Source: an uncultured Pseudomonadales bacterium
GTDB lineage: Bacteria > Patescibacteriota > Microgenomatia > UBA1400 > PJMF01
Assembly: GCA_964583795.1 (NCBI GenBank)
Contig: CAZOWX010000002.1
Location: 14,966 to 78,965 of the forward strand
DNA length: 64,000 nucleotides
Direction: 5' to 3'
Under the pieces are notes generated by a model, which worked only from the letters and a program-made list of their open reading frames with translations, was not told the origin of the DNA and ran no database searches. Position 1 is the stretch's first letter. The number at the start of each line of letters is the position of its first letter. Shown here in pieces: positions 5,815 to 61,832 of the stretch. Position numbers and translations under genes: made by a program.

Positions 5815-5898
5815 GGCTATATTATACGATAGGGGGGAAGAAGTTGGGAGTCGGAAGTTGATTTGTTGATTAGACTTGTTCATCAGGATACGGTAGTT

Positions 5899-17059: not shown

Positions 17060-17061
17060 CT

Positions 17062-18174: not shown

Positions 18175-18176
18175 CT

Positions 18177-18464: not shown

Positions 18465-18469
18465 ACTTC

Positions 18470-19102
18470 ATGAACACCGCAGACCTCGTCACTTTAGTGG
18501 ATGAAAGCGATCAAGTCATTGGATCGATGGATAAAGTTGAGGCCCACAAAGGGACAGCAATCCGACATCGAGCAATTAGCGTGTATTTATTTCAACAAAG
18601 AGATGACGGCGAATACCTGCTCATTCAGCAACGCAGTACCAAAAAAATTCTCGGTAGCCTGCAGTGGGCGAACACCGTTTGCGGAAATGTTTGGCCAAAT
18701 GAAAGTTATCATCAATGTGCAATGCGACGATTGTCGGTAGAGCTGGGAATTACTTCAGTAAACATTACGCCTATTCATAAGTTTGAGTATCACCTACAGT
18801 GTAGTGAACAATTCAGCGAATGGGAAATCGATCAAGTATTTGCAGGATGGTACGATGATGCAGTGACCGCAAATCCAGATGAAGTAAGAGACTTTGTTTG
18901 GGTGAAGTGGGAGGATTTAATAAACAAAAACAAGAATACACCATTTGATCATTCCCCCTTTAGAAGTAAAACAATTGAGATAACAAACCCAACAACACAA
19001 CAACTCAACAACACAACAACGCTTCAGCTGAGTCCTTGGTTCGTCCACATGCTTGATGATACCCAATTAGTTAACAAGCTAAATTCATTTGTAAACCAAT
19101 GA
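18470..19102 (+). CDS. idi: Isopentenyl-diphosphate delta-isomerase, type 1 (Nudix fold)
   Basis: HRAISVYLFQ...LLIQQRSTKKILGSLQWANTVCGNVWPNE...AMRRLSVELGI matches IDI-1 conserved blocks; carries an in-frame QQLNNTTT repeat insertion near the C-terminus. Confidence 0.7.
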   Translation: MNTADLVTLVDESDQVIGSMDKVEAHKGTAIRHRAISVYLFQQRDDGEYLLIQQRSTKKILGSLQWANTVCGNVWPNESYHQCAMRRLSVELGITSVNITPIHKFEYHLQCSEQFSEWEIDQVFAGWYDDAVTANPDEVRDFVWVKWEDLINKNKNTPFDHSPFRSKTIEITNPTTQQLNNTTTLQLSPWFVHMLDDTQLVNKLNSFVNQ

Positions 19103-19986: not shown

Positions 19987-20954
19987 ACAACGTTACTGTA
20001 TCCGCACCTGGCAAGCTATTACTTTACGGCGACCACTCTGTGGTGCACGGACATCCCTGTATCGTCACCGCTGTCGATCAGCGAATGTACGTTACCGTTC
20101 AAGAAAGCGCTAAGAGACAACTTTGCGTCATTGCTCCAGATGTTGACACACAAAAATACGAAAAAGCAATTGCGCAACTAGGAGAAGGGACTACTCCAAA
20201 GTCGGTTGCTTTTATCGAACATTGTTACAAGCGGTTTTTAGAAAAACATCCACAATCAACAGGGATCGTAGTTACTACCAAAAGTGATTTTTCGTCACTG
20301 TTTGGGTTTGGTTCCAGTAGTGCAGTGACAGTCGCGTTTGCGAAAGCGCTAAGCACACTTTACTCTGTTACACTCTCAAATAAAGAGTTATTTGATCTTT
20401 GCTATAGCGCTGTCATTGACGTCCAAGGAGTTGGCTCCGGGTTTGACATTGCCGTCGCAATCTGGGGTGGAACAATTTACTATGTCAGTCCAGCAAAAAC
20501 TGTCGAGTCAGTGAATTGTCCTGATTTACCGCTCATTGTTGGATACACGGGTGTAAAAGCCGATACGCCAACGCTCATTCGGCAAGTTGCGCAACAAAAA
20601 GAAAAACATCCTGAAGAAGTTGAACACATCTTTCAAAGCATCACTCAAATTGTTGATCAATCCAAAGTATGCTTAGAAAAACAAGACTGGCACAAAGCAG
20701 GAAAACTCTTGACAGAGAATCAGCAACTGTTGCGAAAACTGCATGTGAGTAGTACAGTCCTAGACAATTTAATCAATGCTGCCAATCTAGCCGGAGCGTA
20801 CGGAGCAAAGCTCTCGGGTGCTGGCGGTGGAGACTGTATGATTGCTTTTTGCGATGCCGCTCATCACATGAGAGTGATTGAAGCCATCCAGAAAGCCGGT
20901 GGCACTCACATGAGTGTGAGTACCAATGCAACGGGGGTAAGGATTGAGAAATAA
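19983..20954 (+). CDS. GHMP kinase, putative phosphomevalonate kinase
   Basis: SAPGKLLLYGDHSVVHGHP, GFGSSSAVTVAFAKA; second GHMP kinase in the operon, exact substrate not resolvable from sequence. Confidence 0.5.
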   Translation: MNNVTVSAPGKLLLYGDHSVVHGHPCIVTAVDQRMYVTVQESAKRQLCVIAPDVDTQKYEKAIAQLGEGTTPKSVAFIEHCYKRFLEKHPQSTGIVVTTKSDFSSLFGFGSSSAVTVAFAKALSTLYSVTLSNKELFDLCYSAVIDVQGVGSGFDIAVAIWGGTIYYVSPAKTVESVNCPDLPLIVGYTGVKADTPTLIRQVAQQKEKHPEEVEHIFQSITQIVDQSKVCLEKQDWHKAGKLLTENQQLLRKLHVSSTVLDNLINAANLAGAYGAKLSGAGGGDCMIAFCDAAHHMRVIEAIQKAGGTHMSVSTNATGVRIEK

Positions 20955-21100
20955 AAAAATAAATTACTTTAAATAATAGAGTCAGATCCTCGATCTCGAT
21001 GGCTTCACTTGGTACGTCCAGGGCGAACCAGGTTCACTCATCGGGTCAAACCTACCTCGCTGGTAGACAGGTATGACAACGTTGAAGGAGCCACATACAC

Positions 21101-22081
21101 ATGCAAAAAGCCACAGCCAAAGCCTCATCGGATATTGCCCTCATCAAATATTGGGGGAAGAAAGATGAAATACTTCGTCTGCCCGAGAACTCGAGTATCT
21201 CTCTCATCTTGGATGGACTGGATACCACAACTACGGTAGAGTTCCAACCAGAGCTAAAAAAGGACTTTGTCACCATTTCAGGTGAAATAGAAGAAGGAGA
21301 AGAGGGGCGGGTGATCAAACATTTAGATCGCATTCGCAAGTTAGCAAATATTTCTACTTATGCAAAAGTTGTCTCGGACAATAACTTTCCGAAAGCAACA
21401 GGCCTGTCAAGTTCGGCATCAGGTTTCGCAGCATTATCATACGCTGCATCAAAAGCGGCAGGACTCAATTTGTCAGAAAAACAACTCAGCATTTTATCCA
21501 GACAAGGTTCCGGCAGCGCCTGCCGTTGTGCTTGTGGGGGGATCGTGCAGTGGCTCGATGGAGACACTTCTGAAACTTCGTACTCAAAATCGCTTTACGA
21601 TTCTCACTATTGGGACATTCGTGATGTGATAGCAGTAGTTGATGAAGGGAAGAAAAGCATTTCATCAACGGCAGGACACACCACAGCTCGAAGCAGTATT
21701 TTCTATCAATCCAGGCAAGATAATTTGCCAAAAAAAATCAAGGCTTTAAAAAATGCTCTGAAGAAAAAAGACTTTACACAATTGGGAGAGATTGCAGAAG
21801 GAGATGCTCTTGAATTTCACACCATTCTACTCACTTCTCACCCTGCTCTCATTGCCTGGTATCCCGGGACCATTGAAGTCATGCTCGCAGTGCAAGCGAT
21901 GAGAAAAGAGGGAGTAGAAGCGTATTTCACTATTAACACAGGGTTTAATGTTCACATTTTGACTCTCCCCGAAAATGAAAAGAAAGTGCGATCTCGGTTG
22001 CAAAAATTACCTTTAGTGCAAAAAACACTGATCGCTAAAATTGGTGAAAAACCAAAGTTTTTAACAAAGCACTTATTCTAA
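21101..22081 (+). CDS. mvaD: Diphosphomevalonate decarboxylase
   Basis: ASSDIALIKYWGKKDE...NSSISLIL, GLSSSASGFAAL motifs. Confidence 0.8.
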   Translation: MQKATAKASSDIALIKYWGKKDEILRLPENSSISLILDGLDTTTTVEFQPELKKDFVTISGEIEEGEEGRVIKHLDRIRKLANISTYAKVVSDNNFPKATGLSSSASGFAALSYAASKAAGLNLSEKQLSILSRQGSGSACRCACGGIVQWLDGDTSETSYSKSLYDSHYWDIRDVIAVVDEGKKSISSTAGHTTARSSIFYQSRQDNLPKKIKALKNALKKKDFTQLGEIAEGDALEFHTILLTSHPALIAWYPGTIEVMLAVQAMRKEGVEAYFTINTGFNVHILTLPENEKKVRSRLQKLPLVQKTLIAKIGEKPKFLTKHLF

Positions 22082-22088
22082 AAAAAAC

Positions 22089-22634
22089 ATGTCTGAAACA
22101 ATTGTAGAAGTTACTGAAAACGGAGAGATGGTGGGCCCTATTGATAGAGATGTGGCTCATCAAAAAAATATCCCCCACGCAATTGTAATGATTTTACTTC
22201 GAACACCAAAATCATCACCCCAAGCATTGTTTCAAGTTCGAGGGAAAAATGTAAAAAAATATCCAGGGTTTATTACGTTAACAGCAACTGGTCATATCAG
22301 ATATGAGGAAGGAAGAACGCTACAAGAACTTGCAAAAACAAATGCAAAAGAAGAACTTGAACAGGAAACAAAAGGTTTCGTTCTTTTGGGAGATATCGGA
22401 AAGATTGATTTGAAGCTGACAACCCAAGGATTCTTTTCTGATGGAGAAGAACGACAATATGTCTTTATTTTTACTGCTGAGATAGAGCACTTGCCACAAT
22501 TACAATCTGCTAAAAACGAAGAGGTCGCTCAACTGAAAATGCTTACAATCGATGAGGTTTTAAAGCTCGCAAAACAAGGACAAGTTACACCATTTGCTTT
22601 AGAAGCATTACGGTTGCTTAAATTAATTGATTAA
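22089..22634 (+). CDS. Nudix-fold protein (degenerate Nudix box)
   Basis: Nudix-like core ...TATGHIRYEEGRTLQELAKTNAKEELEQE; function unclear. Confidence 0.4.
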   Translation: MSETIVEVTENGEMVGPIDRDVAHQKNIPHAIVMILLRTPKSSPQALFQVRGKNVKKYPGFITLTATGHIRYEEGRTLQELAKTNAKEELEQETKGFVLLGDIGKIDLKLTTQGFFSDGEERQYVFIFTAEIEHLPQLQSAKNEEVAQLKMLTIDEVLKLAKQGQVTPFALEALRLLKLID

Positions 22635-22657
22635 AATCTTTTTACTTTCATAAATAC

Positions 22658-23200
22658 ATGCCTCTCGATGACGCTACAGAGCTTTTTTATCAGGTAGATC
22701 AACACGATCGCGAGATTGGACGGATCACTAGAAAACAAGCCCACTCAAATCCTAACATCATTCATCGTAGTGTTGCCGCATTAATCATTAACCAAAATGA
22801 TGAGATGTTATTTCAAAAACGAAGTCTACAAAAAGATATGAACCCTGGATTTTGGAGCTATGGTGTAGGGGGACATGTAAACTATGGTCAAACATACCAA
22901 TCAGCCATAGTTAGAGAACTACAAGAAGAGTTGGGGTTAATTCATCCTCAAGTTCGATTCCTCAAAAAAATTCTTGTCCCGAGTGAAAAAGAAACAGAGA
23001 TGAAATCAGTATTTGAAGTGCGATTAAAAGAAGTACCTCACTTTGTTTTGGATTCTACAGAAGTATCCGAAGTACAATGGGTGAGTATTGATAAAATTAC
23101 TCATTTTGTGAACACCCATCCATTTACTGACTGGACCATCATGACATTAAAACATACCGGGTATTTAGATGAAAACTTCATACAAAAAGGAGAAATATGA
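22658..23200 (+). CDS. Nudix hydrolase
   Basis: Nudix box GGHVNYGQTYQSAIVRELQEELGL. Confidence 0.6.
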   Translation: MPLDDATELFYQVDQHDREIGRITRKQAHSNPNIIHRSVAALIINQNDEMLFQKRSLQKDMNPGFWSYGVGGHVNYGQTYQSAIVRELQEELGLIHPQVRFLKKILVPSEKETEMKSVFEVRLKEVPHFVLDSTEVSEVQWVSIDKITHFVNTHPFTDWTIMTLKHTGYLDENFIQKGEI

Positions 23201-23898
23201 CAAAAACAAGCTTATCTAACCCTAAACATATTGCCATCATCATGGACGGTAATCGACGCTGGGCAAAACAACACAAACTTAAAGCTTTGCAAGGACATCA
23301 GTATGTCACCGACAAAGTAATAGAACCATTACTCGATGCTTGTGTAGAGCGAGGAGTGGAGTACTTAACTCTCTGGGCATTTAGTACTGAGAACTGGCAG
23401 CGCGACAAAGCAGAAGTTGAAGGATTAATGAAAATCTTTCGCAGCGCTTTTTCAAAAAGTGCTCAAGATTTATACAAGAAAGGAGTGCGTCTCAATTACA
23501 TCGGTGACATGTCGAAATTCCCACCAGACATTCAAGAAGGTGTAAAAAAATGGATGGATATTTCAAAGAATAATACGAAGATAACAGCCACATTTGCTCT
23601 CAATTACGGTGGTCATGATGAAATTATTCGAGCAATTCACAAACTCAAAGCAATAAACATTGATTCGCAAACAGTGACAGCGGATCAATTTTCAAGCTTG
23701 CTTGATACTGCCAAATTGCCAAACCCCGATCTGCTTATTCGACCAGGGGGAGAACAACGGCTTTCTGGTTTCATGCCGTGGCAGACAGTGTACACCGAGC
23801 TATACTTCACCGATGTTCTCATGCCAGACTTTGATGAAAGCGAACTGCAAAAAGCAATAGAGGAGTATCAAAGTCGGTCAAGACGTTTTGGACGGTAA
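23197..23898 (+). CDS. uppS: Undecaprenyl-diphosphate synthase (cis-isoprenyl transferase)
   Basis: HIAIIMDGNRRWAK, ...RPGGEQRLSGF motifs. Confidence 0.9.
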   Translation: MTKTSLSNPKHIAIIMDGNRRWAKQHKLKALQGHQYVTDKVIEPLLDACVERGVEYLTLWAFSTENWQRDKAEVEGLMKIFRSAFSKSAQDLYKKGVRLNYIGDMSKFPPDIQEGVKKWMDISKNNTKITATFALNYGGHDEIIRAIHKLKAINIDSQTVTADQFSSLLDTAKLPNPDLLIRPGGEQRLSGFMPWQTVYTELYFTDVLMPDFDESELQKAIEEYQSRSRRFGR

Positions 23899-27732: not shown

Positions 27733-28059
27733 TTACTTAACCTTCGCAATCATACTTTCATACCCGGCTTTTCCAGCAAAACCAACTTGGCGATCGACCT
27801 CTTGTCCATCTTTAAACATGACCACTGTTGGGATGCTCATCACCCCATACTTTGATGGAGTGGTCTGGTTCTCATCAACATTCATTTTTACAATTGTCAC
27901 ATCGTTTTGCTCTCCACTTAACTCATCCAGAATTGGAGCCGCCATCTTACATGGACCACACCACTCAGCATAGAAATCAACAAGAACCGGTTTATCGGAC
28001 TTGAGAACCATCGCCTCAAACTCTTCATCGGTGATGTGTGCTGCTTTTGCATCTGACAT
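27733..28059 (-). CDS. trxA: Thioredoxin
   Basis: WCGPCK active site. Confidence 0.9.
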   Translation of the reverse strand: MSDAKAAHITDEEFEAMVLKSDKPVLVDFYAEWCGPCKMAAPILDELSGEQNDVTIVKMNVDENQTTPSKYGVMSIPTVVMFKDGQEVDRQVGFAGKAGYESMIAKVK

Positions 28060-28158
28060 AGTTGTTTCTCATCGCATTTTTTCGATGAGCCTCCTTTTTA
28101 TAGTATGTAGTATATGGTATTTCGTATATAGGGATTGATTGCCTCCATAATCCATAAT

Positions 28159-28395: not shown

Positions 28396-28442
28396 TGTTT
28401 GTTTGGTTGGTTGTTGGTTGTTAGAAAAATAGCGACAAACTC

Positions 28443-28464
28443 ATTATACCCCCAGGGGGTATGC
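28443..28464. promoter_or_regulatory. Candidate CsoR-family operator (ATACCCCCAGGGGGTAT palindrome) about 50 bp upstream of the repressor gene
   Basis: Perfect GC-rich inverted repeat of the type bound by CsoR-family repressors (B. subtilis copZA operator TACCC-N-GGGTA). Confidence 0.45.
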
Positions 28465-28508
28465 GAGTCAATAGTAATCTTTCTTTTGTAGCATTCTAAC
28501 TCAAGAGC

Positions 28509-31544: not shown

Positions 31545-33266
31545 CTACTTAGCCACGCCTTGTTGAGCCCCTGCTCCCACTCCGTATTGACCAAGTACTT
31601 GGTTCATTCCTTGAGAGACCGTTGCTGTACTTTGGGTCAGCGCTCCAGACCCAGCATTAACCATGTCCAGGTAGTACTTGATGATGCGATCGTTAATCCC
31701 GTTATCGTGAGTGTATGCGTTGAGATACCACGACTTTGCATAGGGAGCATCTTGAATAAAGGCTCCAACATACTGTTTGTTTGCAATCTCGTCAGCCAAA
31801 TCCACTCGCGAGTACAACTCACCAAAGGCACGCACATTCGAGGCGTCAGCATATAATTTTTTCTCAACATCGGCAGAACTTAAATACTTGAGTAAAAGCC
31901 ACGAACCTTCTTTTTGACTGCTTTGTGCATTGACGCCCTCTGCCCAAAAACTTGCCCAAGTCGTACGCGGTTTATCAGCCAATTGAGGCACTGGCACCAC
32001 ATCAAACTGCAAGTTAGGATTTGCCGACTTCACTTCATGTGCTCTCCATGATGGCGCAAGCATCATCGCTACGTCACCTTTGGCAAAAGCGACAGTTGCA
32101 TTGGGAAGTGTTGTATCCCAGACACCGAGCTTTCCTGAAAAGTCAAGGTAAAAGGAGATCGCTTCCAAAGCTTGTTCGGATGTTGGATTTGCAGGATTAG
32201 CTCCATTTTGCAACATCAGTAGTGCAATAATTTCCGGAAAATGCTCAACATTTGAGGCCGTTCCCATGGCAATTCCACCACGAGTTATCTTCCCCCCTGA
32301 TTTAATAGTTAACTCTTGCGATAGTCGTTTTAACTCTTCCCAATCCTTTGGTGGAGTTTTGTTGGCAATCGTAAAAATGTCTTTGTTATAGTACAAGCCT
32401 AAACCGTCGATCATGAGTGGGATCCCTACCACATTCCCATTCAAGGTAAGCTGCTGTGTCGCTGTCGGATAAAAGGTCTTTGAGAACTCATCCTTAGTCA
32501 TAATTTTTTCTGGTAAAGGACTGAGCTCGTTTTTGAGCATTGGCACCCAACTGGCATGAAAGCGAAATACGTCTGGGCCACTGCCTTTGGAGATCTCGGC
32601 CTGCAAGCGCTCACGATAATCTTGATACGATTGTTGAGTGTATTGAACTTGATACTCCGGATTCGCTTTTTCAAAATCACTCAGCACCTGTTGCATGACT
32701 GTGGTTGGCTCCCAAAGCCCCCAATACACAATTGTTTTCTTTTTGACTGGAGCAGTGGTACTTGTTTTGGGGTTAGAGATTGACTTGTTTTTATTTAAAA
32801 ACCAATACGCTCCAAAGGCCAATAAACCAACAAACAATATCCCGAGCAATAAAAAGGGCAAAAACCGTAAAATGGATTTTTTCGGTTGATCAGCACCACC
32901 AGCACTACTTGGAGGGGGGGTACTTGCTTTAAATTGGGTCGCCGTTCCCACTACTGTGGCATTGGGCTTCACTGAACTTACCGGAGGTTGAGTCATTGAA
33001 GGCTTCATTCCCACTTGAGCTGAACCTCCAACCGATTTCACGGATGAGGCATTCATAACGGGATTGTTCGGGAAAGTTGTCGGAGTCGAGTTAACAGGAT
33101 TTGCACTCATGGTAGCACCAGCAGGGGCTCCGGGAGCTTTCGCCGAAAATGCGGCTGATGACGGTTGTGGGACACTTTGTTGAGCGCTTGCCATTCCCAC
33201 AGGGTTCCCTGGTTGAAATGGGTTCAATGGTTTTACGTTTGGGGTGGGAAGTGTATTATCAGGCAT
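31545..33266 (-). CDS. ABC transporter substrate-binding protein (family 1, sugar-type), N-terminal TM anchor and long low-complexity linker
   Basis: about 170-aa P/S/A/T-rich linker, TM, then MalE-like SBP domain (IVYWGLWEP...DVFRFHASW); no permease or ATPase adjacent. Confidence 0.55.
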   Translation of the reverse strand: MPDNTLPTPNVKPLNPFQPGNPVGMASAQQSVPQPSSAAFSAKAPGAPAGATMSANPVNSTPTTFPNNPVMNASSVKSVGGSAQVGMKPSMTQPPVSSVKPNATVVGTATQFKASTPPPSSAGGADQPKKSILRFLPFLLLGILFVGLLAFGAYWFLNKNKSISNPKTSTTAPVKKKTIVYWGLWEPTTVMQQVLSDFEKANPEYQVQYTQQSYQDYRERLQAEISKGSGPDVFRFHASWVPMLKNELSPLPEKIMTKDEFSKTFYPTATQQLTLNGNVVGIPLMIDGLGLYYNKDIFTIANKTPPKDWEELKRLSQELTIKSGGKITRGGIAMGTASNVEHFPEIIALLMLQNGANPANPTSEQALEAISFYLDFSGKLGVWDTTLPNATVAFAKGDVAMMLAPSWRAHEVKSANPNLQFDVVPVPQLADKPRTTWASFWAEGVNAQSSQKEGSWLLLKYLSSADVEKKLYADASNVRAFGELYSRVDLADEIANKQYVGAFIQDAPYAKSWYLNAYTHDNGINDRIIKYYLDMVNAGSGALTQSTATVSQGMNQVLGQYGVGAGAQQGVAK

Positions 33267-33319
33267 AAGCTATTTTACCATGCTTTTAACTAGAGACATT
33301 CAGATCTATAATAGCACCC

Positions 33320-35083
33320 ATGCGTGTTTTACGACAAGAGTGGTTCAGCGGACACATAAAAGCTTTCTTCTTGGGAGCTGTCTTGGCTGTGTTTGCGCTG
33401 GTTATCGGAGGCTCACTCGCTTACTATACAACATATCATAGTCGGTTTTACGAGGGAGTCTTCATCGACTCTGTTGACGTCTCTCGTTTGACCAAGGCTG
33501 AGGCGTTACAAAAACTGCAGGAAAACACAGTTGTCCCCAGCACAACCGTCACGCTGCAACTTGACCAAACTTCGCTAGCATCTTCTTCTGCGGCTTTAGG
33601 AGTTCATCATGAATATGATGACACACTCGTGACTGCACTCCAGTGGGGGCGTAGTAGTACTATTATTAATAACATCGCCACTATTTTTTCAACCTATACA
33701 CAAGCTAAAAATTTTGAGTCTCCACTCGCATTTGACACTGAACTGACAACAGCATTTACCAAACAGTATGCAACCCTGGCAGATCATCCTGGAAAAAATC
33801 CCAGTGCTCATCTTGAAAACGGGAAGATCATCATTGATGCAGGTGCATTTGGTCAAGCAGTCGACATCGAACAAACCAACCAAGCCATACTCTCAGCCGC
33901 AAACACCTCTTCTCCAGTTATTACCGCTGTTATGAAAGATACGGGAATTCAACTGAATCCGGAACAAATTACAGCGGCAGTAACTCGTGCACAAAAACTG
34001 GTTGGAAAAACCCTCAAAGGGAAAGTTGATATTGTTACGGTCGATATTGATGACGCACAACTCGTGGCGGCGCTGACTTTCCCAGAAGGCTATGATGATG
34101 AGCTCATCAGCTCAATCACTGATGAGTTTAAAGAGAAGATTGATCGACCGGCAAAAAACGCAGTTTTTTCTTTCGACCCATCATCGCTCAAGGTTTCTGA
34201 GTTTCAACCAGACCTTGACGGGATCACGATCGATCAACAGCTTGCTCATGATGAAGTCGTGAAAGCTCTAAAAACGTTTGAGTCTGATACTGCTCCGAAA
34301 GAACTGGTGATAGAAATTCCCAAAACGGCGAAAAAGGCCGAGATCACGTTGGGTTCGCTTAACAACTTGGGGATTAACGAACGCATTGGGTTTGGTGAAA
34401 CGTATTATTATCATTCAATTCCCTCTCGTGTACACAACGTTTCCCAAGCCAGCAAAATCTTGAACAATACTATTGTAAAACCCGGCGAAGAGTTTTCATT
34501 CAATAAGACACTCGGAGAAGTTTCGAAGAGCACGGGTTTTCTGCCGGCATACATCATCCAATCTGGTCAAACAGTACTTGGTGATGGTGGGGGCGTGTGT
34601 CAAGTCAGTACGACACTTTTCCGATCGCTCCTTGACTCGGGATTAAAAATCACCAAACGCAAAGCTCACACTTACAGAGTCAGCTACTACGAGCTCAATC
34701 GCGAACCAGGGTTTGATGCGACTGTTTTTTCTGGTGACGTGGATCTGCGTTTTGTGAATGACTCACCAGGAGCGGTACTGCTTCACTTTGAGACGTTTCC
34801 CGATGATCGCTATATGTTTGTGACTATTTATGGCACAGACGATGGTCGAACCACAGAAATTTCAGAATATAAAAAATGGGATTCTCGAGGAGCTCCACCA
34901 GCCCAATATATTGATGATCCCTCTCTGCCTCCCGGGAAGCTCGTTCAAATCGATTTTGCAGTGGGTGGGATTAAGGCCCAGTTCAAGCACACGGTTCGTG
35001 ATAAAACGGGCAACTTAATGTATGAAAATGTCTACTACTCAAATTACATCCCGTGGTCAGCGAAGTATCGGAGAGGAGTTTAG
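33320..35083 (+). CDS. VanW-family protein with N-terminal TM anchor
   Basis: C-terminal VanW domain GGGVCQVSTTLFRSLLDSGLKITKRKAHTYRVSYY. Confidence 0.7.
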   Translation: MRVLRQEWFSGHIKAFFLGAVLAVFALVIGGSLAYYTTYHSRFYEGVFIDSVDVSRLTKAEALQKLQENTVVPSTTVTLQLDQTSLASSSAALGVHHEYDDTLVTALQWGRSSTIINNIATIFSTYTQAKNFESPLAFDTELTTAFTKQYATLADHPGKNPSAHLENGKIIIDAGAFGQAVDIEQTNQAILSAANTSSPVITAVMKDTGIQLNPEQITAAVTRAQKLVGKTLKGKVDIVTVDIDDAQLVAALTFPEGYDDELISSITDEFKEKIDRPAKNAVFSFDPSSLKVSEFQPDLDGITIDQQLAHDEVVKALKTFESDTAPKELVIEIPKTAKKAEITLGSLNNLGINERIGFGETYYYHSIPSRVHNVSQASKILNNTIVKPGEEFSFNKTLGEVSKSTGFLPAYIIQSGQTVLGDGGGVCQVSTTLFRSLLDSGLKITKRKAHTYRVSYYELNREPGFDATVFSGDVDLRFVNDSPGAVLLHFETFPDDRYMFVTIYGTDDGRTTEISEYKKWDSRGAPPAQYIDDPSLPPGKLVQIDFAVGGIKAQFKHTVRDKTGNLMYENVYYSNYIPWSAKYRRGV

Positions 35084-36144: not shown

Positions 36145-37452
36145 ATGAACCCACCCAGTCAACCGTTGACCGTTCTCGCTATAGAATCGTCCTGTGACGA
36201 GACTGCTTGTTCAGTAGTACAAAAAAGTGACAGTGAACCATTGGCTCACGTCCTCTCCTCTGTTACGGCAACCAGTCTGGCCAAGCATAAAGCAACCAAA
36301 GGAATTGTTCCTGAAATAGCTGCGAGAGAGCAGTTAAAGTATATATTGCCGGTTATTGAGGAAGCGCTGAGTAAACTCAAAACTCAAAACTCAAAATTCA
36401 AAATTGGTAGTCAAAAAACATCCAATAACCAATACCCAACAACCAATACCCAACTTGATGCAATAGCGGTTACCGTCGGTCCAGGATTAGCTGGGTCGCT
36501 CTTAGTCGGGATTGAGACCGCTCGTGCCCTCGCAATGGCGTGGAATCTTCCCATTATTCCGGTCAATCACATAAAGGCTCACCCGTATGCAAATTTCATC
36601 AAAAGTCAAAGCTCAACAAACGATAAACTGGTTCGTGCAGTTGTGAATGAACGATCAACAACTCAACAACTCAACAGCTCAACAACAGTCCCAAACTTTC
36701 CCCTTCTCTCCTGGGTAATCTCCGGCGGACATACCGATTTATTTCTAATGAACTCTCACACCGATATTCAACGACTTGGTGGAACTGTCGATGATGCGGC
36801 TGGTGAGTGCTTTGACAAGTGCGCTCGCGTTCTTGGATTTGATTATCCAGGCGGACCGTTTATCGAAAAATTGGCAGGGGGAAAAAGGAAGATCCCCAAT
36901 GGCCAAGCTCATCCCCCTCGCTTTGCACTTCAGGATGACAAAAACCATCATTTCGGCGAAAGCCGGGATCTATCCACAGTTGTTGTGTCAACAACCCAAC
37001 AACCGAACAACACAACAACTATCCCCCTCCCCCGCCCGCTCTTTTACGAGAAGACTCTGAACATGTCCTTTTCCGGTCTTAAGGCAGCTTTTTTGCGATC
37101 ATTCAACGAAAACAAAGAAACAATCCCACTAGAAGAACTTCAGCACAAACTCGCAACTGCGTTGCAAGAAGCAGTCACAGACATTATCGTCAAACGTACC
37201 CAGCAAGCACTCGAGCTCTATCCGCAAGTTCGCTCAATCATCGTCTCTGGTGGCGTCAGTGCAAATCAGAAATTAAGAGAAAAACTCGACACTCACACCC
37301 AACAACCCAACAACACAACCACTCAACAACTGACAATGCACTTTCCCTCTATTGATTACTGTACCGACAACGCAGCAATGATCGGCAGCTACGCGCTGTT
37401 TCACATGGATGAAAAAACGGATTGGAAAAATGTAAAACTTGACTTAAGCTAA
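36145..37452 (+). CDS. tsaD: tRNA N6-adenosine threonylcarbamoyltransferase TsaD, with several in-frame repeat insertions
   Basis: LAIESSCDETACSVV N-terminus, HIKAHPYA, GGVSANQKLREKL; about 95 aa longer than typical TsaD because of low-complexity inserts (NNQYPTTNTQ; STTQQLNSSTT; HFGESRDLSTVVVSTTQQPNNTTT; HTQQPNNTTTQQL). Confidence 0.8.
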   Translation: MNPPSQPLTVLAIESSCDETACSVVQKSDSEPLAHVLSSVTATSLAKHKATKGIVPEIAAREQLKYILPVIEEALSKLKTQNSKFKIGSQKTSNNQYPTTNTQLDAIAVTVGPGLAGSLLVGIETARALAMAWNLPIIPVNHIKAHPYANFIKSQSSTNDKLVRAVVNERSTTQQLNSSTTVPNFPLLSWVISGGHTDLFLMNSHTDIQRLGGTVDDAAGECFDKCARVLGFDYPGGPFIEKLAGGKRKIPNGQAHPPRFALQDDKNHHFGESRDLSTVVVSTTQQPNNTTTIPLPRPLFYEKTLNMSFSGLKAAFLRSFNENKETIPLEELQHKLATALQEAVTDIIVKRTQQALELYPQVRSIIVSGGVSANQKLREKLDTHTQQPNNTTTQQLTMHFPSIDYCTDNAAMIGSYALFHMDEKTDWKNVKLDLS

Positions 37453-39912: not shown

Positions 39913-42678
39913 ATGCAGAAAAACTTTGACCACAACCAATCAGAAACCCACACTTACGAACTTTGGGAAAAAGCTGGAGCATTTAATCCGGACGAGGTAA
40001 AAAGGATGAGGGAGGATCAAAAAGGACAGATCCCGTATCGCCACGCTCCTCACGGTCGCTTGGCAGTACGGGATGACAAAGACGATTTAAAAAGTGTATC
40101 GTCTTTGTCAACACCACACTCCAAGCGTCAACAACTCAACAACTCAACCACTCAACAACCATTCTCCATCATCATGCCTCCTCCCAATGCCAACGACCCG
40201 TTGCATGTGGGTCACGCGATGTTCATCAGCATCGAAGATATTTTGATCCGCTATCATCGCATGAAGGGTGATGACACAATCTGGATCCCAGGGACTGATC
40301 ACGCTGGTATCGAAACACAGTTCGTCTTCGAAAAAAAACTTGCCAAACAAGGTAAAAGCCGGTTTAACTTTGATCGAGACACTCTCTACAAAATGATTTG
40401 GGATTACGTCCAAGAAAATTCAGGAGTCGCTGTCGATCAAATGAAAAAGCTTGGTGCAAGTGCCGACTGGTCACGGTTTACGTTCACACTCGATCCATCC
40501 GTCGTAAAGTTTGTGACAAACACTTTCAAAAAAATGCATCAGGATGGACTCGTTTACCGCGATCAAAAACTGGTGCATTATTGCGTCAAATGTGGTACCA
40601 GCTACTCAGAACTTGAAGTGGTTCACAAAGAACAAACGGATAAATTGTATTACCTCAAATATGGCCCGTTTACTCTTGCCACAACTCGGCCTGAAACGAA
40701 GTTTGCCGACACTGCGGTGGCAGTTCATCCAGATGATACTCGCTACAAAAAATATATTGGAACTGAAATTGAAGTCGAGGGACTGACCAGCAAGTTCAAG
40801 ATGAAAGTCATCGCCGACGAGTATGTCGATAGTGAATTTGGAACAGGTGTCGTGAAGATTACTCCCTACCACGACTTTAACGACTACGAAGTTTGGCAAC
40901 GACATAAAAATGAAATTCCTGCACCAAAACAAGTCATTGGCTTTGACGGGAAGTTAACCGCTATTGCTGGAAAGTATGCTGGAATGAAAGTCAAAGCTGC
41001 TCGAGATCTGATTGAAAAAGACTTGCAAGAAAAAGGCTTACTGGAAAAAGTGAATAACAACTATCTGCACACTGTTGGGGTATGTTATCGCTGTGGAACG
41101 GTTCTCGAACCACTCCCCTTGCCTCAATTTTTTATCAAAGTAAAAGATAAAACCAATAATCTGACACAAAAAGTGTTGGAAGTTTTAGATAAAAAAGAGA
41201 CCAAGATTTATGGAGCTGGTCGAGAAAAAATTTTAAGAAACTGGTTGGAAAACCTTAAAGATTGGAACATCAGTCGCCAAATTGTGTGGGGAATTCGGAT
41301 TCCGGTGTGGTACCCGGTGGAAGGAAATGAAGAGAAAATTTCCGTGTCGTTCATCAATCAAAAAGGAGAGTTTCAAAAAAACGAAACCGTAAAACAACGA
41401 CTCGACGAAGGCTACACGATAGAAGAGATGAAGAAAGGATTGCAACAAGTCTATCCGTCAGCTGAATTGGATTTTGTTGTGGCAACAGAGGATCCTGGAA
41501 TCGATAAGTCAAAGGGCAAAAGTCAAAAGTCAAACAGCACAACAACCCAACCACACGACCACACGACAACACGACCACACGACAACACGTCCACAATGTT
41601 GGAGTCTGCTACAAGCTACAAGCCACAAGCTTCAAGCAAACGCGCCTCATCGGTTTCCTACTTTCCAGAAACCGACACGTTTGACACTTGGTTTTCATCA
41701 GGACAGTGGCCAGTCGTCACTTTAAAGACCAACAACTCAACAACACAACAACACAACAACGACTCTGATTTCGACCGGTTTTATCCAACCACTGTCATGG
41801 AGACTGCCTACGACATTTTGCTGTTCTGGGTAATGCGTATGATGATGATGGGCATTTACTTGGAAAATAAAACACCGTTTGAGCATGTCTACTTGCATGG
41901 GCTCGTCCGCGATGAAAAAGGTCAAAAGATGAGCAAGAGTAAAGGCAATGTGATCAACCCACTGGAGTTTGTGAGTAAATACGGCGCGGATGCCGTCAGA
42001 ATGGCTCTGGTAATGTCCTCTACTCCGGGTTCTGATAGCGCTGTGGGGGAAAATAAAATCAAAGGCATGCGCAACTTTTCCAATAAGATTTGGAATGCCT
42101 CTCGTTTTGTAATGATGGCATTGGACGAACAGAGTAATGCCTCTTATTCAAGAGAGAATCTGCAAATGGAAAAGTCAAAAGTCAAAAGTCAAAAGTCAAG
42201 AGACGACCAAGTTTCTTTTCCTCAGCTGGAAAATCAGAATGATATTCAAGAAGGAAACCGTCATCCCGGCGAAAGCCGGGATCCAGTGAAGTCTGCAACC
42301 GATGTTCAAAAAGACGACGGGGTCCTTCTCCGCCAGTCGGCGGATCAGGATGACAGTGCCTTTAAAAAAAGACTTCAAGAAGTATCTGACGCTGTCTCAG
42401 ACCATTTAGAAAAACTGCGTCCCGGTCAAGCTGCAGAGCTGGTCTACAACGAGTTTTGGCACTGGTTTTGTGATGTGTGTATCGAAGATCAGAAAAAAGG
42501 CAATCTTTCGCGAGGCGCTTTGTTAGAAGGGCTGATTACTTTTCTCAAACTCCTCCACCCATTCGTCCCATTCGTCACTGAAGCACTCTGGCAAGAGCTC
42601 TGGCAAGGAGGTGATGATACGATGAAAGAAATGATGGGAAGTGGGTTGCTAATCGTGGCAGACTGGCCAGGGAAGTAG
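39913..42678 (+). CDS. valS: Valine--tRNA ligase with in-frame repeat insertions
   Basis: HIGH-region PPPNANDPLHVGHA, KMSKS as KMSKSKGN, editing and anticodon-binding regions; inserts QQLNNSTTQQ, KSQKSNSTTTQPHDHTTTRPHDNTST, NNSTTQQHNN, KSKVKSQKS, RHPGESRDP. Confidence 0.9.
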   Translation: MQKNFDHNQSETHTYELWEKAGAFNPDEVKRMREDQKGQIPYRHAPHGRLAVRDDKDDLKSVSSLSTPHSKRQQLNNSTTQQPFSIIMPPPNANDPLHVGHAMFISIEDILIRYHRMKGDDTIWIPGTDHAGIETQFVFEKKLAKQGKSRFNFDRDTLYKMIWDYVQENSGVAVDQMKKLGASADWSRFTFTLDPSVVKFVTNTFKKMHQDGLVYRDQKLVHYCVKCGTSYSELEVVHKEQTDKLYYLKYGPFTLATTRPETKFADTAVAVHPDDTRYKKYIGTEIEVEGLTSKFKMKVIADEYVDSEFGTGVVKITPYHDFNDYEVWQRHKNEIPAPKQVIGFDGKLTAIAGKYAGMKVKAARDLIEKDLQEKGLLEKVNNNYLHTVGVCYRCGTVLEPLPLPQFFIKVKDKTNNLTQKVLEVLDKKETKIYGAGREKILRNWLENLKDWNISRQIVWGIRIPVWYPVEGNEEKISVSFINQKGEFQKNETVKQRLDEGYTIEEMKKGLQQVYPSAELDFVVATEDPGIDKSKGKSQKSNSTTTQPHDHTTTRPHDNTSTMLESATSYKPQASSKRASSVSYFPETDTFDTWFSSGQWPVVTLKTNNSTTQQHNNDSDFDRFYPTTVMETAYDILLFWVMRMMMMGIYLENKTPFEHVYLHGLVRDEKGQKMSKSKGNVINPLEFVSKYGADAVRMALVMSSTPGSDSAVGENKIKGMRNFSNKIWNASRFVMMALDEQSNASYSRENLQMEKSKVKSQKSRDDQVSFPQLENQNDIQEGNRHPGESRDPVKSATDVQKDDGVLLRQSADQDDSAFKKRLQEVSDAVSDHLEKLRPGQAAELVYNEFWHWFCDVCIEDQKKGNLSRGALLEGLITFLKLLHPFVPFVTEALWQELWQGGDDTMKEMMGSGLLIVADWPGK

Positions 42679-45341: not shown

Positions 45342-46034
45342 TTATTCTTTCTTCTCTTCTGCCTGGGCGGCATCTGAAGTGGCCGTCTGCTCAGCAGCAG
45401 GTTTTTCACCCTCGGCTGCAGCTGCGCCTTCGGCAGCTTCTTCTGCTGGAGCTTCAGCTGGCTCCTCGGCCATTTGCTGTACTTCTTGGATCTGCACTAG
45501 TACTTCGTCTGGTTCTAAATCAAGAGTGAGTTTCTCTGGATCAGCCTTCAATTCTTTCACGGTGAACTCTTGACCAATTTCAGTAAACAACGCTAAATCG
45601 ATCTGGAAAGCATCTGGGAAGTCGGTTGGCAACGCCTCGACTTCGATCTCCTCATGCATCAAGTTCACACTGGCATCTTTCACCAAAAGCTCGCCAATCA
45701 GCTCAACAGGGACTGCTGCACTGACTTTTTCTTTCAAAGAAACTTGACGGAATGACACGTGAACCAGTTTTTTGGTCAGCGGATTGTACTCGACACTGTC
45801 AACTAAAGTCGGTCGGGTTTGCTTTTCCTCGCCAACTTGCAGATACACGACTGCGGTCTCTCCAGCATCTTTGTAGATTTGAGAAAATGCCTTGGCTTCC
45901 ACACTGATCGCCACCGGCTCTTTAATCTTTCCTGAAATATTGGCTGGAACTTGACCCGAGACACGAAGTCTTTTGGTTTTTTTGCCAAAAAGATCACGCT
46001 TAACTGCTTTGAGGTTGTACTGCTGGGTAGTCAT
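45342..46034 (-). CDS. rplY: 50S ribosomal protein L25 / general stress protein Ctc, acidic C-terminal tail
   Basis: MTTQQYNLKAVKRDLFGKKTKRLRVSGQVPANISG... L25 N-terminal domain; E/A-rich tail. Confidence 0.75.
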   Translation of the reverse strand: MTTQQYNLKAVKRDLFGKKTKRLRVSGQVPANISGKIKEPVAISVEAKAFSQIYKDAGETAVVYLQVGEEKQTRPTLVDSVEYNPLTKKLVHVSFRQVSLKEKVSAAVPVELIGELLVKDASVNLMHEEIEVEALPTDFPDAFQIDLALFTEIGQEFTVKELKADPEKLTLDLEPDEVLVQIQEVQQMAEEPAEAPAEEAAEGAAAAEGEKPAAEQTATSDAAQAEEKKE

Positions 46035-46039
46035 ATTTT

Positions 46040-46225
46040 TGTTGTTGGGTTGTTAGTTGTTAGGTTGTTAGGTTGTTAGAGACAAGCGAGCGCATATTGT
46101 ACCAAGTTTTTTAGAGAATCTCTAGAGGGTGTCGCTTGCTTTGAGTTGTTGGGTGATTGAGTTGTTAGGTTGTTAACAACTTAACAACCCAACAACTTGC
46201 TCGCCGGCGAGGCGAGCACAACAAC
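46040..46225. repeat. GTTGTT(A/G)GGTTGTT repeat tract plus palindromes (GTTGTTAACAAC; GCTCGCCGGCGAGCGAGC) forming the rplY 5' leader
   Basis: mRNA-sense reads CAACAACCTAACAACCTAACAAC... immediately before the rplY ATG. Confidence 0.7.
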
Positions 46226-50510: not shown

Positions 50511-50978
50511 CTACAGTGAGTCTTTTGCGGCATCAAGCGCTTCGTTGACCAATCGGTCTGCATCTTTATTTTCAGCACGGGGGACGTGCGCAAAAGAAGC
50601 AGAGCAGGGGAGTGTTTCTAATAACGTTTGAGCTTTTTTTACCAATGATTGCAAGTGAGCCTCTTTGACTTTCCAGTGTCCTTGTACTTGTTCAACCACC
50701 AACTTCGAGTCCAATAAAAAACGCACGCTCTTAACTGTTTGTGACTGACAAAATCGGCTTACCCACTCAATTGCGTAGAGAAGCGCCTCATACTCTGCAA
50801 CGTTATTGGTTTGTTCACCGATATACGCTTTGTGCTCGTGAACCAATGACTGGCCGGCGTGAATCACAATCCCAATTCCGGCTGGCCCAGGGTTACCACG
50901 CGCGCCGCCGTCGGTATGAATTGTGAGGGTCAGTTGTTGGGTTGCTGAGTTGTTGGGTTGCTGGGAAGGAGTGGTCAT
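50511..50978 (-). CDS. rnhA: Ribonuclease HI
   Basis: HTDGGARGNPGPAG, NNVAEYEALLYAIEW, HVPRAENKDADRL motifs; N-terminal 12 aa (PSQQPNNSATQQ) come from a CAAC repeat. Confidence 0.85.
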   Translation of the reverse strand: MTTPSQQPNNSATQQLTLTIHTDGGARGNPGPAGIGIVIHAGQSLVHEHKAYIGEQTNNVAEYEALLYAIEWVSRFCQSQTVKSVRFLLDSKLVVEQVQGHWKVKEAHLQSLVKKAQTLLETLPCSASFAHVPRAENKDADRLVNEALDAAKDSL

Positions 50979-51072
50979 AAATTTGAGGTGATTGCTAATC
51001 GGTTTTCCCCATTAACTATTCAATAAACAACAGTATGGCAAAAACCAAGCAACTAACAAACCAAGAAACTTT

Positions 51073-55146: not shown

Positions 55147-56664
55147 TTATTCCTCGGACTGGAGCGTGGAAAGAGAAGTGGGCGTACCACCAGACAAAGA
55201 AGTTCGTATGGCCTGGACTTGCGTTCTCAGCTCTTCGTCTTGTGGCAACGCCTCTTCGATTTTTTTCACAGCATGCATCACGCTGGTGTGGTCTCGATCC
55301 CCAAAATAGCGACCAATCTCTGCAAAGGGAATCTCGAGGTGGTGCTTGATGAGATACATGGCGATGTGTCGAGCGTTGGCGATGGGTTTGGCCCGTTTTG
55401 GACCACGAAGATCCATTAGTTTTATATGGTACTGGTTGGAGATGGTTTTGATGATTTCTAGCGGTTTTGCATAAATTTTTTCTTTTTTCTGATCGCTCAC
55501 TTGATGCTGACTAAGAATTTCTTGGACAAGATCGTGGGTAATCATTTTGTGACGAAGAATGTGTTCTGAGTGGAGTGCTTTGACGATACCCTCGAGCTTT
55601 CTGGTGCTGGTGATTGCTGCTGCAATTCTTTGAGCGATGTCCATGGGAATGGTGAACTGAATTTGTTTGGCTTTAATCAAAACAATGGCGGTTCGCAGCT
55701 CAAAAGACGGCTGTTGAATATCAATGATAAGGCCGCCTTCGAGTCTCGACTGAATTCTGTCATCCAGCGGGCTAATTTCATGTGGCGGCCGATCAGAAGT
55801 CAAGATAACTTGACCCCGCGATTTTAGCACTGAGTTAAAGGTGTGAAAAAATTCTTCTTGCATGGCTCGTTTTCCAGCCATGAACTGAATGTCATCAATC
55901 AACAAAATTTGGACGCTGCGATAGCGCTGTTTGAGCTGAATGGTTTTTTTTGTCTGAATCGCCTCGACGATCTCATTCATAAACTCTTCGCCAGTGCGGT
56001 AAATGAGATTGAAGTTTTGGTTGTTCCGAAGGATGTTTTGACCGACGGCTTGCATAAGATGCGTTTTTCCAACACCCACTCCGCCGTAGAGAAACAAGAC
56101 GTTGTAGGCTTTTCCTGGATTTTGGGAGACTGCAACCGCCGCTGCATGGGCCATCTCGTTGGTTGATGAGACGGCAAACGTGTCAAATATGTAGTTTTTG
56201 TTGAGGCCAGCTTGTTGAATTTTGTAATCAACGAGGTCGTCTGCTGATTGTTGAATGCTGGCTTGAGAAAACAGCGATGCAGCAGAAGGCGAAATTGGTG
56301 TTTGAGATGGCTCATTGGTTTGCTTTGGAATATCAAAACCGATGGATTGTTGTTCTTCGTTGTGAGGCGTCCTTTTGCGCTGTTTTCCTGTGGGAAGTGT
56401 GAAATCCCCCACTTGAAGCTTGAGTTCAACCGGTTTTTCTAAAATTGTTTCCAGTGTTTGTGCAATGGTTTGTTTAAAACTTTTTTCAATAATGGAGATG
56501 TGAAAAGAGGTTGGGGATTCAAGCGTGCACACAATTTTATCTGGTTGCTCTTGGACGTCTGAAAGAACGTTGGGGAAAATCCAAGTTTTAAAAACCCCTT
56601 GTGACAGAGCTACTGAAAGTTCTGCACAGACTTTTCCCCATAATTCTTCTGGTGAGTAGGTCAT
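55147..56664 (-). CDS. dnaA: Chromosomal replication initiator protein DnaA
   Basis: Walker A GGVGVGKTHL, IDDIQF, sensor motifs, C-terminal DNA-binding domain. Confidence 0.95.
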   Translation of the reverse strand: MTYSPEELWGKVCAELSVALSQGVFKTWIFPNVLSDVQEQPDKIVCTLESPTSFHISIIEKSFKQTIAQTLETILEKPVELKLQVGDFTLPTGKQRKRTPHNEEQQSIGFDIPKQTNEPSQTPISPSAASLFSQASIQQSADDLVDYKIQQAGLNKNYIFDTFAVSSTNEMAHAAAVAVSQNPGKAYNVLFLYGGVGVGKTHLMQAVGQNILRNNQNFNLIYRTGEEFMNEIVEAIQTKKTIQLKQRYRSVQILLIDDIQFMAGKRAMQEEFFHTFNSVLKSRGQVILTSDRPPHEISPLDDRIQSRLEGGLIIDIQQPSFELRTAIVLIKAKQIQFTIPMDIAQRIAAAITSTRKLEGIVKALHSEHILRHKMITHDLVQEILSQHQVSDQKKEKIYAKPLEIIKTISNQYHIKLMDLRGPKRAKPIANARHIAMYLIKHHLEIPFAEIGRYFGDRDHTSVMHAVKKIEEALPQDEELRTQVQAIRTSLSGGTPTSLSTLQSEE

Positions 56665-56774: not shown

Positions 56775-56830
56775 GTTAACAGTGAAACAGTGAAACAGTG
56801 AAATAGTGAAACAGTTAATAGTGAATAGTT
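56775..56830 (-). promoter_or_regulatory. Conserved upstream motif (copy 5, expanded by a CAGTGAAA x4 tandem) about 110 bp upstream of dnaA
   Basis: Reverse complement ctattcactattaactgtttcactatttcactgtttcactgtttcactg. Confidence 0.45.
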
Positions 56831-56860
56831 TTGGTGACTTGTTCCGATGGAGTGTCTGAG

Positions 56861-56917
56861 TTGGTTGGTTGGTTGGTTGGTTGGTTGGTTGGTTGGTTGG
56901 TTGGTTGGTTGGTTGGT
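56861..56917. repeat. (TTGG)14 microsatellite
   Basis: Seen directly; ORF 56588..56935 (TNQPTNQP...) is its translation and is not credited. Confidence 0.9.
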
Positions 56918-61553: not shown

Positions 61554-61832
61554 TTTTTAGGTTCTAGGTTATAGGTGCTAGGTTCTAGTTATTGTTGTGT
61601 TGTATTGAGTTTATCCAATTACTCCAAGTGGCTTTGGAATTTGATTGGGTGTTTTTGTTGTTCGTTATTTGTTGGCTTGCCTCGCCGTAGCGTTTCGCGA
61701 AGGCGGGGAGTTAAGATGTTCTTCTTACTTTATCAAGAAAAGGAGTTTTGACCAAGTGACGAAGTATGTCTTAAGAGAAAAAAGTGTCAGTAAATAATGA
61801 CGACTGAAGACTGATTTCTGACAACTTGTTGG

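Follow-up and report, generated by a model that had tools for sequence, protein, structure and literature searches.

C/A-rich leader sequences are known mostly from engineered constructs and from a few enterobacterial genes, in which they help a Shine-Dalgarno (SD) sequence. The omega leader of tobacco mosaic virus (TMV) carries a poly(CAA) core, in the sequence style ..CAACAACAACAAACAACAAACAACA.., and it is said to have been reported by Gallie and Kado in 1989 as functionally equivalent to an SD in bacteria. In Escherichia coli, CA-repeat 5' tails were found to be strong standby sites in vitro as well as in vivo, with maximal activity at 16-18 nt (PMC5934652), and ACA motifs were recognized as translation-enhancing modules in Salmonella (PMC3879156); the assertion of an earlier note on the DNA considered here, that unstructured C/A-rich leaders are known enhancers, is thus backed by experiment. 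The DNA in question (the window) is a stretch of 64,000 nt from an uncultured bacterium of the Candidate Phyla Radiation (CPR; Patescibacteria), positions 14,966 to 78,965 of contig CAZOWX010000002.1 (assembly GCA_964583795.1), in which a tandem octamer repeat directly precedes rplY, the gene for ribosomal protein L25/TL5. The best explanation for this arrangement, in which we place slightly better than even confidence, is that the expanded repeat replaced the rplY SD and serves as an SD-independent leader on which ribosomes land.

In mRNA sense, the rplY tract reads CTAACAAC CTAACAAC CTAACAAC TAACAAC CCAACAAC, then AAAAAT, then the ATG at 46034 (Table 1). Tandem Repeats Finder describes it as an array of period 8 with 5.0 copies and 90% matches, the units lying head to tail. 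It contains no G, each octamer unit holds a single ACA, and the TAA triplets of the units place stops in all three frames. A tract of the same kind was found before the CsoR-like repressor gene csoR, the distance from tract to ATG being 6 nt in rplY and 2 nt in csoR. Given that promoter matches lie upstream of both, the tracts are placed in 5' untranslated regions (UTRs), in mRNA sense. The predicted rplY promoter is kept in the relatives L001-L004 described below (cctctagagatt...TTGGTACAAT) and would set the transcription start site (TSS) near 46089, which would give a leader of about 55 nt that is nearly all tract. From the -10 box to the ATG there are approximately 61 nt in rplY and 47 nt in csoR, both outside the 5-9 nt of a leaderless gene. 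No SD was detected in either leader with the canonical anti-SD ACCUCCUUU, which may not be the host's own 16S tail, the duplex energies being +2.0 (rplY) and +2.3 kcal/mol (csoR). Over positions -30 to -1, the C+A fraction is 0.90 in rplY and 0.93 in csoR, with no G in either. When segments of 86-98 nt were folded, the predicted minimum free energy (MFE) was -4.2 kcal/mol for rplY (98 nt) and -5.3 kcal/mol for csoR, no better than for shuffled sequences, and the predicted centroid structures leave the leaders essentially unpaired. In position, composition and single-strandedness, with TSS and folding being predicted, both leaders have the features of a C/A-rich enhancer or standby site.

The likeness to the enterobacterial C/A enhancers, i.e., the CA tails, the ACA motifs, the target elements of GcvB, and the downstream CA multimers of Martin-Farmer and Janssen, lies in a single-stranded, G-poor, ACA-containing 5' UTR near the AUG, with no strict spacing to it (PMC5934652, PMC3879156); at approximately 40 nt, the rplY tract is at or above the 16-18 nt at which E. 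coli CA tails have their maximal effect. Whereas those enhancers act together with an SD or are engineered, the rplY tract stands alone where an SD was lost and is a natural octamer repeat of a CPR host. Its sequence style is almost identical to that of TMV omega, which differs in being viral, eukaryote-adapted, and of trinucleotide rather than octamer period; the likeness would be a functional one, with no evolutionary relationship.

The origin of the two leaders was traced in related genomes. The syntenic loci (dnaA-dnaN-rpmH-rnpA-yidC-jag-rnh-DUF4012-rplY...aaRS...tsaD) were compared with those of L001, a member of the same species (L25 93% identical), and of L002, L003, and L004 (L25 75%, 73%, and 65% identical, respectively). 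In L002 and L003, the rplY leader is approximately 90 nt long and possesses a single CTAACAAC 14-16 nt after the -10 box, a stable hairpin, and AAGGA 4 nt before the ATG, with a predicted MFE of -18.3 and -20.5 kcal/mol, respectively, compared to -4.2 kcal/mol in the window; L004 has AAGGAG, likewise 4 nt before the ATG. The tract thus occupies the place of a former SD. Five units are present in the window instead of the single CTAACAAC, and the ancestral hairpin and SD have been lost, while L001 has four units, the difference being exactly one 8-nt unit. Judged from these alignments, the rplY tract is shown to be a lineage-specific and recent repeat expansion. With csoR, both relatives examined (L125 and L126) are leaderless, only 6 nt separating the -10 box from the ATG, so that approximately 41 nt were inserted in the window; the promoter is the same in all three, as is a palindrome within its spacer, ATACCCCCTGGGGGTAT, that would represent a putative CsoR operator. 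The comparison shows that two different ancestral modes of initiation, SD-led and leaderless by their predicted signals, were overwritten by a CAAC-repeat leader in this lineage. The rplY start codon aligns with the starts of its orthologues (N-terminal alignment), and purifying selection on L25 is strong (dN/dS = 0.06 compared to the sister strain L001); rplY must therefore be translated from the tract leader, and, with no SD left, we infer that its initiation must be SD-independent.

Two public collections were scanned for AACAACNNAACAACNNAACAAC, yielding at least 119 loci in GTDB species genomes and at least 120 metagenome loci; both are arbitrary samples, and the counts that follow are among the matches listed. 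An ATG opening an open reading frame (ORF) of at least 80 aa was sought within 20 nt downstream of a tract of at least three NNAACAAC units and the two orientations were compared, so that any effect of tract placement in intergenic DNA is controlled for. With non-coding tracts, the ratio of CAAC-sense to GTTG-sense was 11:1 in GTDB (p = 0.006) and 10:0 in the metagenomes (p = 0.002), or 21:1 for both samples together. Unclassified tracts gave 22:2 and 19:1, respectively, ATGs with an in-frame stop upstream 14:2 and 13:0, and non-coding tracts within 60 nt of an ATG 18:3 and 13:3. By eye, the proteins encoded downstream look like ordinary enzymes (FabG-, NagB-, NAD-epimerase-, and DJ-1/PfpI-like) whose conserved N-terminal motif begins at the ATG, and no SD was seen between tract and ATG in the GTDB examples inspected. 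The 11 GTDB cases represent 11 species, mostly Prevotella and other Bacteroidota, the rest being a deltaproteobacterium, Thiohalomonas, and Candidatus Buchananbacteria; in the last of these (L006), TGGTATAAT is followed by (CTAACAAC)x4, 8 nt, and the ATG, the architecture of the rplY leader. The arrangement of a tract before a start codon is recurrent and orientation-specific well beyond the window, and the sense-orientation bias in many phyla suggests that the tract is not just neutral but favoured in the mRNA. The SD-independent A-rich leaders of Bacteroidota and cyanobacteria, and of non-SD genes in general (PMC5397173), share with it the absence of an SD, low structure at the start, and A-richness at positions -1 to -6, and many of the cross-phylum examples listed are from Bacteroidota; those leaders reflect a diffuse compositional property, whereas the window tract is a discrete array, in an organism in which SD-led and leaderless initiation are used as well. 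The searchable literature yielded no description of octamer-repeat leaders replacing an SD, or of a link to start codons across phyla.

The same tract is present in the unrelated metagenome-assembled genome of a deltaproteobacterium (L041), where CAACAACCTAA, at approximately 6114-6143, precedes the ATG of a 613-aa ORF by 17 nt. Judged by eye, this ORF resembles the PHP-domain alpha subunit of DNA polymerase III; it also carries an in-frame PTTNNPTTNNPTTNN insert. Upstream of the tract lies a GTTGTT arm with which it pairs. Use as a leader, in a hairpin, and in frame hence co-occurs outside the window.

Table 1. Coordinates of the rplY leader and of the related features of the window
Feature	Position	Strand	Remark
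(Y)YAACAAC octamer tandem repeat, five units (one of 7 nt)	46041..46080	minus	most of the rplY 5' UTR
A-rich spacer AAAAAT, from repeat to rplY ATG	46035..46040	minus	without SD
Predicted rplY promoter: -35 TAGAGA, 17-nt spacer, TG-extended -10 TACAAT	46124..46096	minus	match and conservation
rplY, ribosomal protein L25/TL5, 230 aa	45342..46034	minus	Pfam
csoR leader, ~41 nt: (g)TCGCTATTTTT, then CTAACAACCAACAACCAACCAAACAAACA abutting the ATG (28395)	28396..28436	minus	absent in relatives
csoR promoter TTGACT-17-TATAAT	28471..28443	minus	
DUF4012 gene (ATG 49615), C/A-rich leader stretch resembling CAAC, AATCAACCAAGCAACGAACCAACCAA	49636..49665	minus	absent in relatives
Heptamer repeat x4.4 (GAACCTA-type; CTAGAAC/CTATAAC)	61558..61588	minus	4 nt before the PrgI-like ATG (61553)
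Compound hairpin immediately following the DUF4012 stop codon	46130..46232	minus	MFE -49.8 kcal/mol, z = -8.6
CAAC octamer tract in Nudix gene, peptide ..NPTTQQLNNTTT..	18986..19020	+	
CAAC octamer tract in tsaD, STTQQLNSSTT	36655..36686	+	absent from orthologues
CAAC octamer tract in tsaD, STTQQPNNTTT	36989..37019	+	absent from orthologues
CAAC octamer tract in tsaD, THTQQPNNTTTQQLT	37297..37330	+	stretch variable among orthologues
CAAC octamer tract in class-I aminoacyl-tRNA synthetase gene, RQQLNNSTTQQP	40128..40159	+	in ~47-aa N-terminal insert without orthologue counterpart
CAAC octamer tract in the same class-I synthetase gene	41730..41760	+	exact 24-nt (8-aa) insertion
CAAC-type octamer tract at RNase H N-terminus, MTTPSQQPNNSATQQLT	50933..50965	minus	orthologues start 10-15 aa later

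The earlier note had placed a CAAC tract against the ATG of four genes, a description that holds for rplY and csoR and not for the remaining two. In the DUF4012 gene, a C/A-rich stretch (aatcaaccaagcaacgaaccaaccaa) lies 20-50 nt upstream and actagcccgtgtcctgccc intervenes before the ATG; the CTGCCC just before this ATG is kept in L002 and L004 (ggccca in L003), and an inverted copy of the stretch is present at 51043-51070. The array before the PrgI-like gene is C/A-rich too, with an MFE of -1.6 kcal/mol, and is built of a heptamer other than CAAC.

The mode of initiation in the window at large was assessed with 59 genes, called by a simple codon-usage model with first-ATG starts, some of which are uncertain. 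GGAG, GAGG, or AGGA occurs at positions -17 to -4 in 12 of the 59 (background 7%), and a 5-mer SD core in 11 (approximately 20%; background 2.3%). Another 13 (approximately 22%; background 7%) look leaderless, having a -10-like box 4-9 nt before the start, and 34 genes (approximately 58%) have neither signal. SD sequences had been described as mostly absent, which is no more than roughly right; with about one gene in five possessing an SD core, an SD system is clearly in use. Contrary to the view that AAGGAG precedes only the DsbA-like gene (4 nt before the ATG at approximately 26184, read by eye), it also lies 4-10 nt before the starts at 21101, 23197, 29581, and 45264, i.e., before at least five genes in all, compared to approximately 0.1 placements expected by chance from arithmetic on the 34 AAGGAG sites. 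AAGGAG precedes rpmH, rplY, and other genes in the relatives as well, and the SD system is hence taken to be functional, in a minority of genes. The leaderless arrangement of tsaD, the VanW-domain gene, and the solute-binding protein (SBP) gene is kept in three relatives, and the SD-less leaders of yidC and dnaA are also conserved. Examples of a TANNNT box 4-9 nt before the ATG are found at 13679, 31545-33320, 36145, 38531, 43768, 49863, and 61833.

The rplY tract is not an isolated array. In its 64 kb, the window holds 29 arrays (0.45/kb) that have a period of 7 or 8 and three copies or more, compared to 0, 0, and 1 in approximately 20 kb each of L002, L003, and L004. Most are 25-46 nt long with 4-5 copies, and their units are unrelated to each other (GACACCT, TACCCAA, CACTATT, TAGGGCT, AAACTCA, ACCACACG, and others); some overlap promoter regions or 3' ends. 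The two-unit pattern AACAACNNAACAAC alone has 19 matches in the window, where 0.04 are expected from shuffles. The rplY tract belongs, above all, to a burst of 7-8-nt repeats that is specific to the lineage and involves many unrelated units. The CAAC family is also present in both orientations in the compound hairpin that follows the DUF4012 gene, where an arm of (GUUGUUNN)x4 pairs with one of (NNAACAAC)x3-4 and a GC hairpin is nested within; L001 lacks the 21-nt GC hairpin, and neither a U-tail nor a terminator-like site was detected at this structure. Other arrays occur, for example, at 1042, 5898, 12610, 13619, 14751, 26271, 28099, 31378, 35088, and 36373, and at 36422, 39545, 41506, 41550, 41608, 42170, 43711, 56778, and 61558.

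Such arrays resemble the cyanobacterial short tandemly repeated repetitive (STRR) heptamers, GGGAATC of Xanthomonas, and GGGGAYT of Nostoc in consisting of tandem 7-8-nt units with few copies per array and many arrays, mostly near gene ends, in forming hairpins from inverted pairs, and in varying in length between close relatives (PMC4692102). The differences are that a single small CPR genome here contains many different units, with almost half of the arrays in frame within conserved genes, that the CAAC unit is A/C-rich rather than G-rich, and that no link to start codons has been described for the families named. The literature searched held nothing relevant on STRR-like repeats in CPR/Patescibacteria or on the exact tract sequences. 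By sequence, position, and predicted structure, the rplY tract is a candidate member of the C/A-rich enhancer/standby class; by its apparent origin, it is a long-unit tandem repeat of the STRR or heptameric simple sequence repeat (SSR) kind.

Inside genes, 14 of the 29 arrays were found, all of which are A/C-rich when read in the coding sense and contain no stop codon, and alignment with orthologues identified them as lineage-specific in-frame inserts. TsaD is 435 aa long compared to 349-403 aa in orthologues, and the class-I aminoacyl-tRNA synthetase (aaRS) 921 aa compared to 754-765 aa; at the exact insertion in the latter, TLKT-NNSTTQQH-N.. is read where three orthologues have TLKTNKENDFD. 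The suggestion that the repeat family may serve both as a leader element and as an in-frame insert was borne out by the octamer tracts of the tsaD, class-I synthetase, Nudix, and RNase H genes. Local seeds for the coding inserts were sought; the orthologous sites are A/C-rich, and only for the rplY leader could a clear, exact seed be recognized. Both tsaD (36145-37452) and the class-I aaRS gene (39913-42678) hold several inserts, which consist of tandem repeats and of copies of the hairpin element AAACCrTCATyyCGGCGAAAGCCGGGATC, located at 36942 (tsaD) and 42255 (aaRS). In L003, two of these TsaD loops also contain an in-frame insert, formed there by a different repeated element, L003's own.

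Taken together, the view of the earlier note that CAAC leaders are possible SD-independent enhancers is partly supported: the repeat before rplY has been co-opted, or is at the least tolerated, as an SD-independent leader. The course of events was the amplification of the single ancestral CTAACAAC in the rplY leader to tandem units with loss of the hairpin and the SD, and a second, copy-type event by which the ancestrally leaderless csoR acquired its 41-nt CAAC leader, while arrays of the burst, approximately 30 nt each, entered leaders, promoters, 3' ends, and, in frame, coding regions. By analogy with the described enhancers, the tract, being single-stranded, rich in ACA, and immediately 5' of the AUG, would most likely allow the 30S subunit to load with no need for pairing to an SD. 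With more than half of the genes SD-less or leaderless already, such a leader would be readily tolerated by ribosomes that are evidently adapted to it. Several findings weigh against this proposal. Only 2 of the 59 genes have a CAAC leader, and the upstream regions in general are A-rich and G-poor rather than C-rich (A 37%, G 17%, C 19%); CAAC as a general leader code of the genome is not supported. The enrichment of CAAC before starts that had been envisaged does appear in the densities of AACAAC per kb (5.7 in sense at -40 to -1, 1.3 and 0.44 in coding sequence in sense and antisense, and 1.3 in other intergenic DNA), but it comes from two genes only and, against the other intergenic DNA of the window, is not significant (Poisson P ~0.07). 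A (TTGGGTA)x6 array, G/T-rich in mRNA sense, lies 14 nt before the ATG at 5883, which indicates that repeats land in leaders whatever their composition. The matches listed from the public collections are taxonomically skewed, many being from Prevotella and other Bacteroidota, and the bias in orientation that they display across phyla means that GUUG-sense is selected against or CAAC-sense selected for; it is no demonstration of enhancement. Finally, the loss of the SD could equally mean a relaxed expression of L25.

Many of these findings would also be expected of a passenger, i.e., a by-product of the burst, arising for instance by polymerase slippage on long units, that has no positive role in translation and leaves rplY to be translated, perhaps less well, via a generic SD-independent route. 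An explanation of this kind is rather unlikely in our view, though it deserves serious weight: it would account for 29 arrays of many unrelated units against 0-1 in the relatives, for their presence in promoters, 3' ends, and coding regions, for a G/T-rich array in another leader, for a copy number that is polymorphic between strains, and for a within-window excess before starts that is not significant, and both the excess of heptameric SSRs seen in some bacteria and the slippage hypothesis are known (PMC4692102). It is countered by the 21:1 sense bias at start codons among the matches listed in the two public samples, by the replacement of a functional SD in a ribosomal protein gene under strong purifying selection, and by the strength of CA-rich tails as enhancers where tested (PMC5934652). 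At the opposite extreme, and put forward only tentatively, (NNAACAAC)n octamers might constitute a recurrent, convergent, and self-sufficient initiation module in bacteria (Patescibacteria, Bacteroidota, and Proteobacteria), the bacterial counterpart of the (CAA)n of TMV omega. Tandem amplification of such a module would take over from the SD in rplY and turn csoR from leaderless to leadered, while TAA-free variants of the repeat would be tolerated as hydrophilic in-frame inserts.

Two further roles appear improbable. The gain or loss of units could alter the length of the leader, and hence the rate of rplY and csoR translation, in a heritable and reversible manner, as with the Haemophilus heptamers in promoters and 5' UTRs. 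Consistent with such tuning are the five units compared to four in the sister strain at approximately 97% local identity, the length-dependence of the CA-tail effect in E. coli (PMC5934652), and the documented phase variation by heptanucleotide SSRs in Haemophilus hmw1A (PMC8262952, PMC12721329); however, the targets here are housekeeping genes, 4-5 units per array imply low rates of slippage, and a single polymorphism was seen (the window compared to L001). Marginally less probable still is that the CAAC leader is a pairing site masked by a G/U-rich RNA, either a GcvB-like small RNA or, in a read-through transcript, the GUUGUU arm that belongs to the 3'-UTR hairpin upstream. The complementary (GUUGUUNN)x4 does lie approximately 110 nt upstream on the same strand, in L041 the GTTGTT arm pairs directly with the leader tract, and GcvB is known to target CA-rich enhancers (PMC3879156). 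In the predicted fold of the read-through transcript, however, the GUUGUU arm is satisfied by the local CAAC arm and the leader remains unpaired; furthermore, the rplY gene has its own promoter between hairpin and leader, and Rfam gave no match to a known RNA family anywhere in the 64-kb window.

If CAAC octamer arrays do prove sufficient for initiation, these close genomes would offer natural before-and-after pairs, one of a structured, SD-led leader and one of a leaderless gene, each giving way to a repeat leader, and ribosome-binding sites would be replaceable in one step by repeat expansion. Recognition of such tracts would aid gene-start prediction in CPR and Bacteroidota, and would provide synthetic biology with a compact SD-independent leader. 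Even on a modest reading, the genome is that of a CPR lineage being remodelled by 7-8-nt tandem repeats, its essential enzymes included.

A number of minor observations were made on the same loci. Both CAAC leaders open, around the predicted TSS, with TCGCT, 5-6 T-rich nt, and CTAACAAC (46072-46089 and 28417-28435, minus strand), and the csoR insertion may be a copy of a whole leader cassette. A statistic for a shared cassette was dropped as circular, the pattern having been derived from the same two leaders, and TCGCT-N5-6-CTAACAAC was kept as an unexplained observation only. An upstream ORF beginning at the ATG directly after the rplY -10 box was rejected, that ATG being upstream of any plausible TSS. 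When rplY (45342-46034) is aligned with L001 (1013-1705), the flanks are approximately 97-100% identical and patches within the gene only 72-85%, with 0.62 synonymous substitutions per synonymous site (dS) over the whole gene, which suggests that recombination with a more distant lineage may have occurred inside rplY. A comparison of leader conservation with synonymous sites between the window and L001 was likewise dropped; given this mosaic, recombination-like divergence, it says nothing on selection on the leader.

Upstream of dnaA (55147-56664, minus strand), at 56778-56917, there are 58 nt of (CCAA/CAAC)x14.5 in dnaA sense followed by (TTTCACTG)x4.8, the latter array being a relative of the CACTATT/CACTGTT arrays that precede other genes (13619, 14751, and 26271). 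Since the cumulative GC skew has its minimum near 52-54 kb, the origin is probably located here; matches to the DnaA box were few and degenerate. Small dispersed repeats of the hairpin type were found to belong to several families: CGTCATCCCGAyGAAArTCGGrATCT... (2182, 24592, and 44389), GGATGACGACTTTTT... (13550, 14637, 24257, 44547, 44810, and 44928), and ATCCCGCAGTGCGGGAT (13483, 24190, and 27592). In one case the copy overlaps a start codon, that of the Fic gene (2187), and repeats of this type fill the trx-trxB spacer, which is approximately 300 nt long compared to 16-50 nt in relatives. The thioredoxin gene itself (27733-28059, minus strand) has an SD-like AAAAAGGAGG approximately 30 nt before its ATG, in the region 28060-28100, and a 7-bp hairpin (ctcatcg-aaaaaatg-cgatgag) lies between the two; the relatives lack the hairpin and have their SD 5-7 nt upstream, and the leader could represent a split ribosome-binding site joined by folding. 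The region 16016-23898 encodes, according to Pfam, a mevalonate-pathway cluster with a trio of archaeal style, formed by an HMG-CoA synthase-like protein, a thiolase, and an OB-fold (DUF35-like) protein, and with two GHMP kinases, a diphosphomevalonate decarboxylase, Nudix proteins, and UppS.

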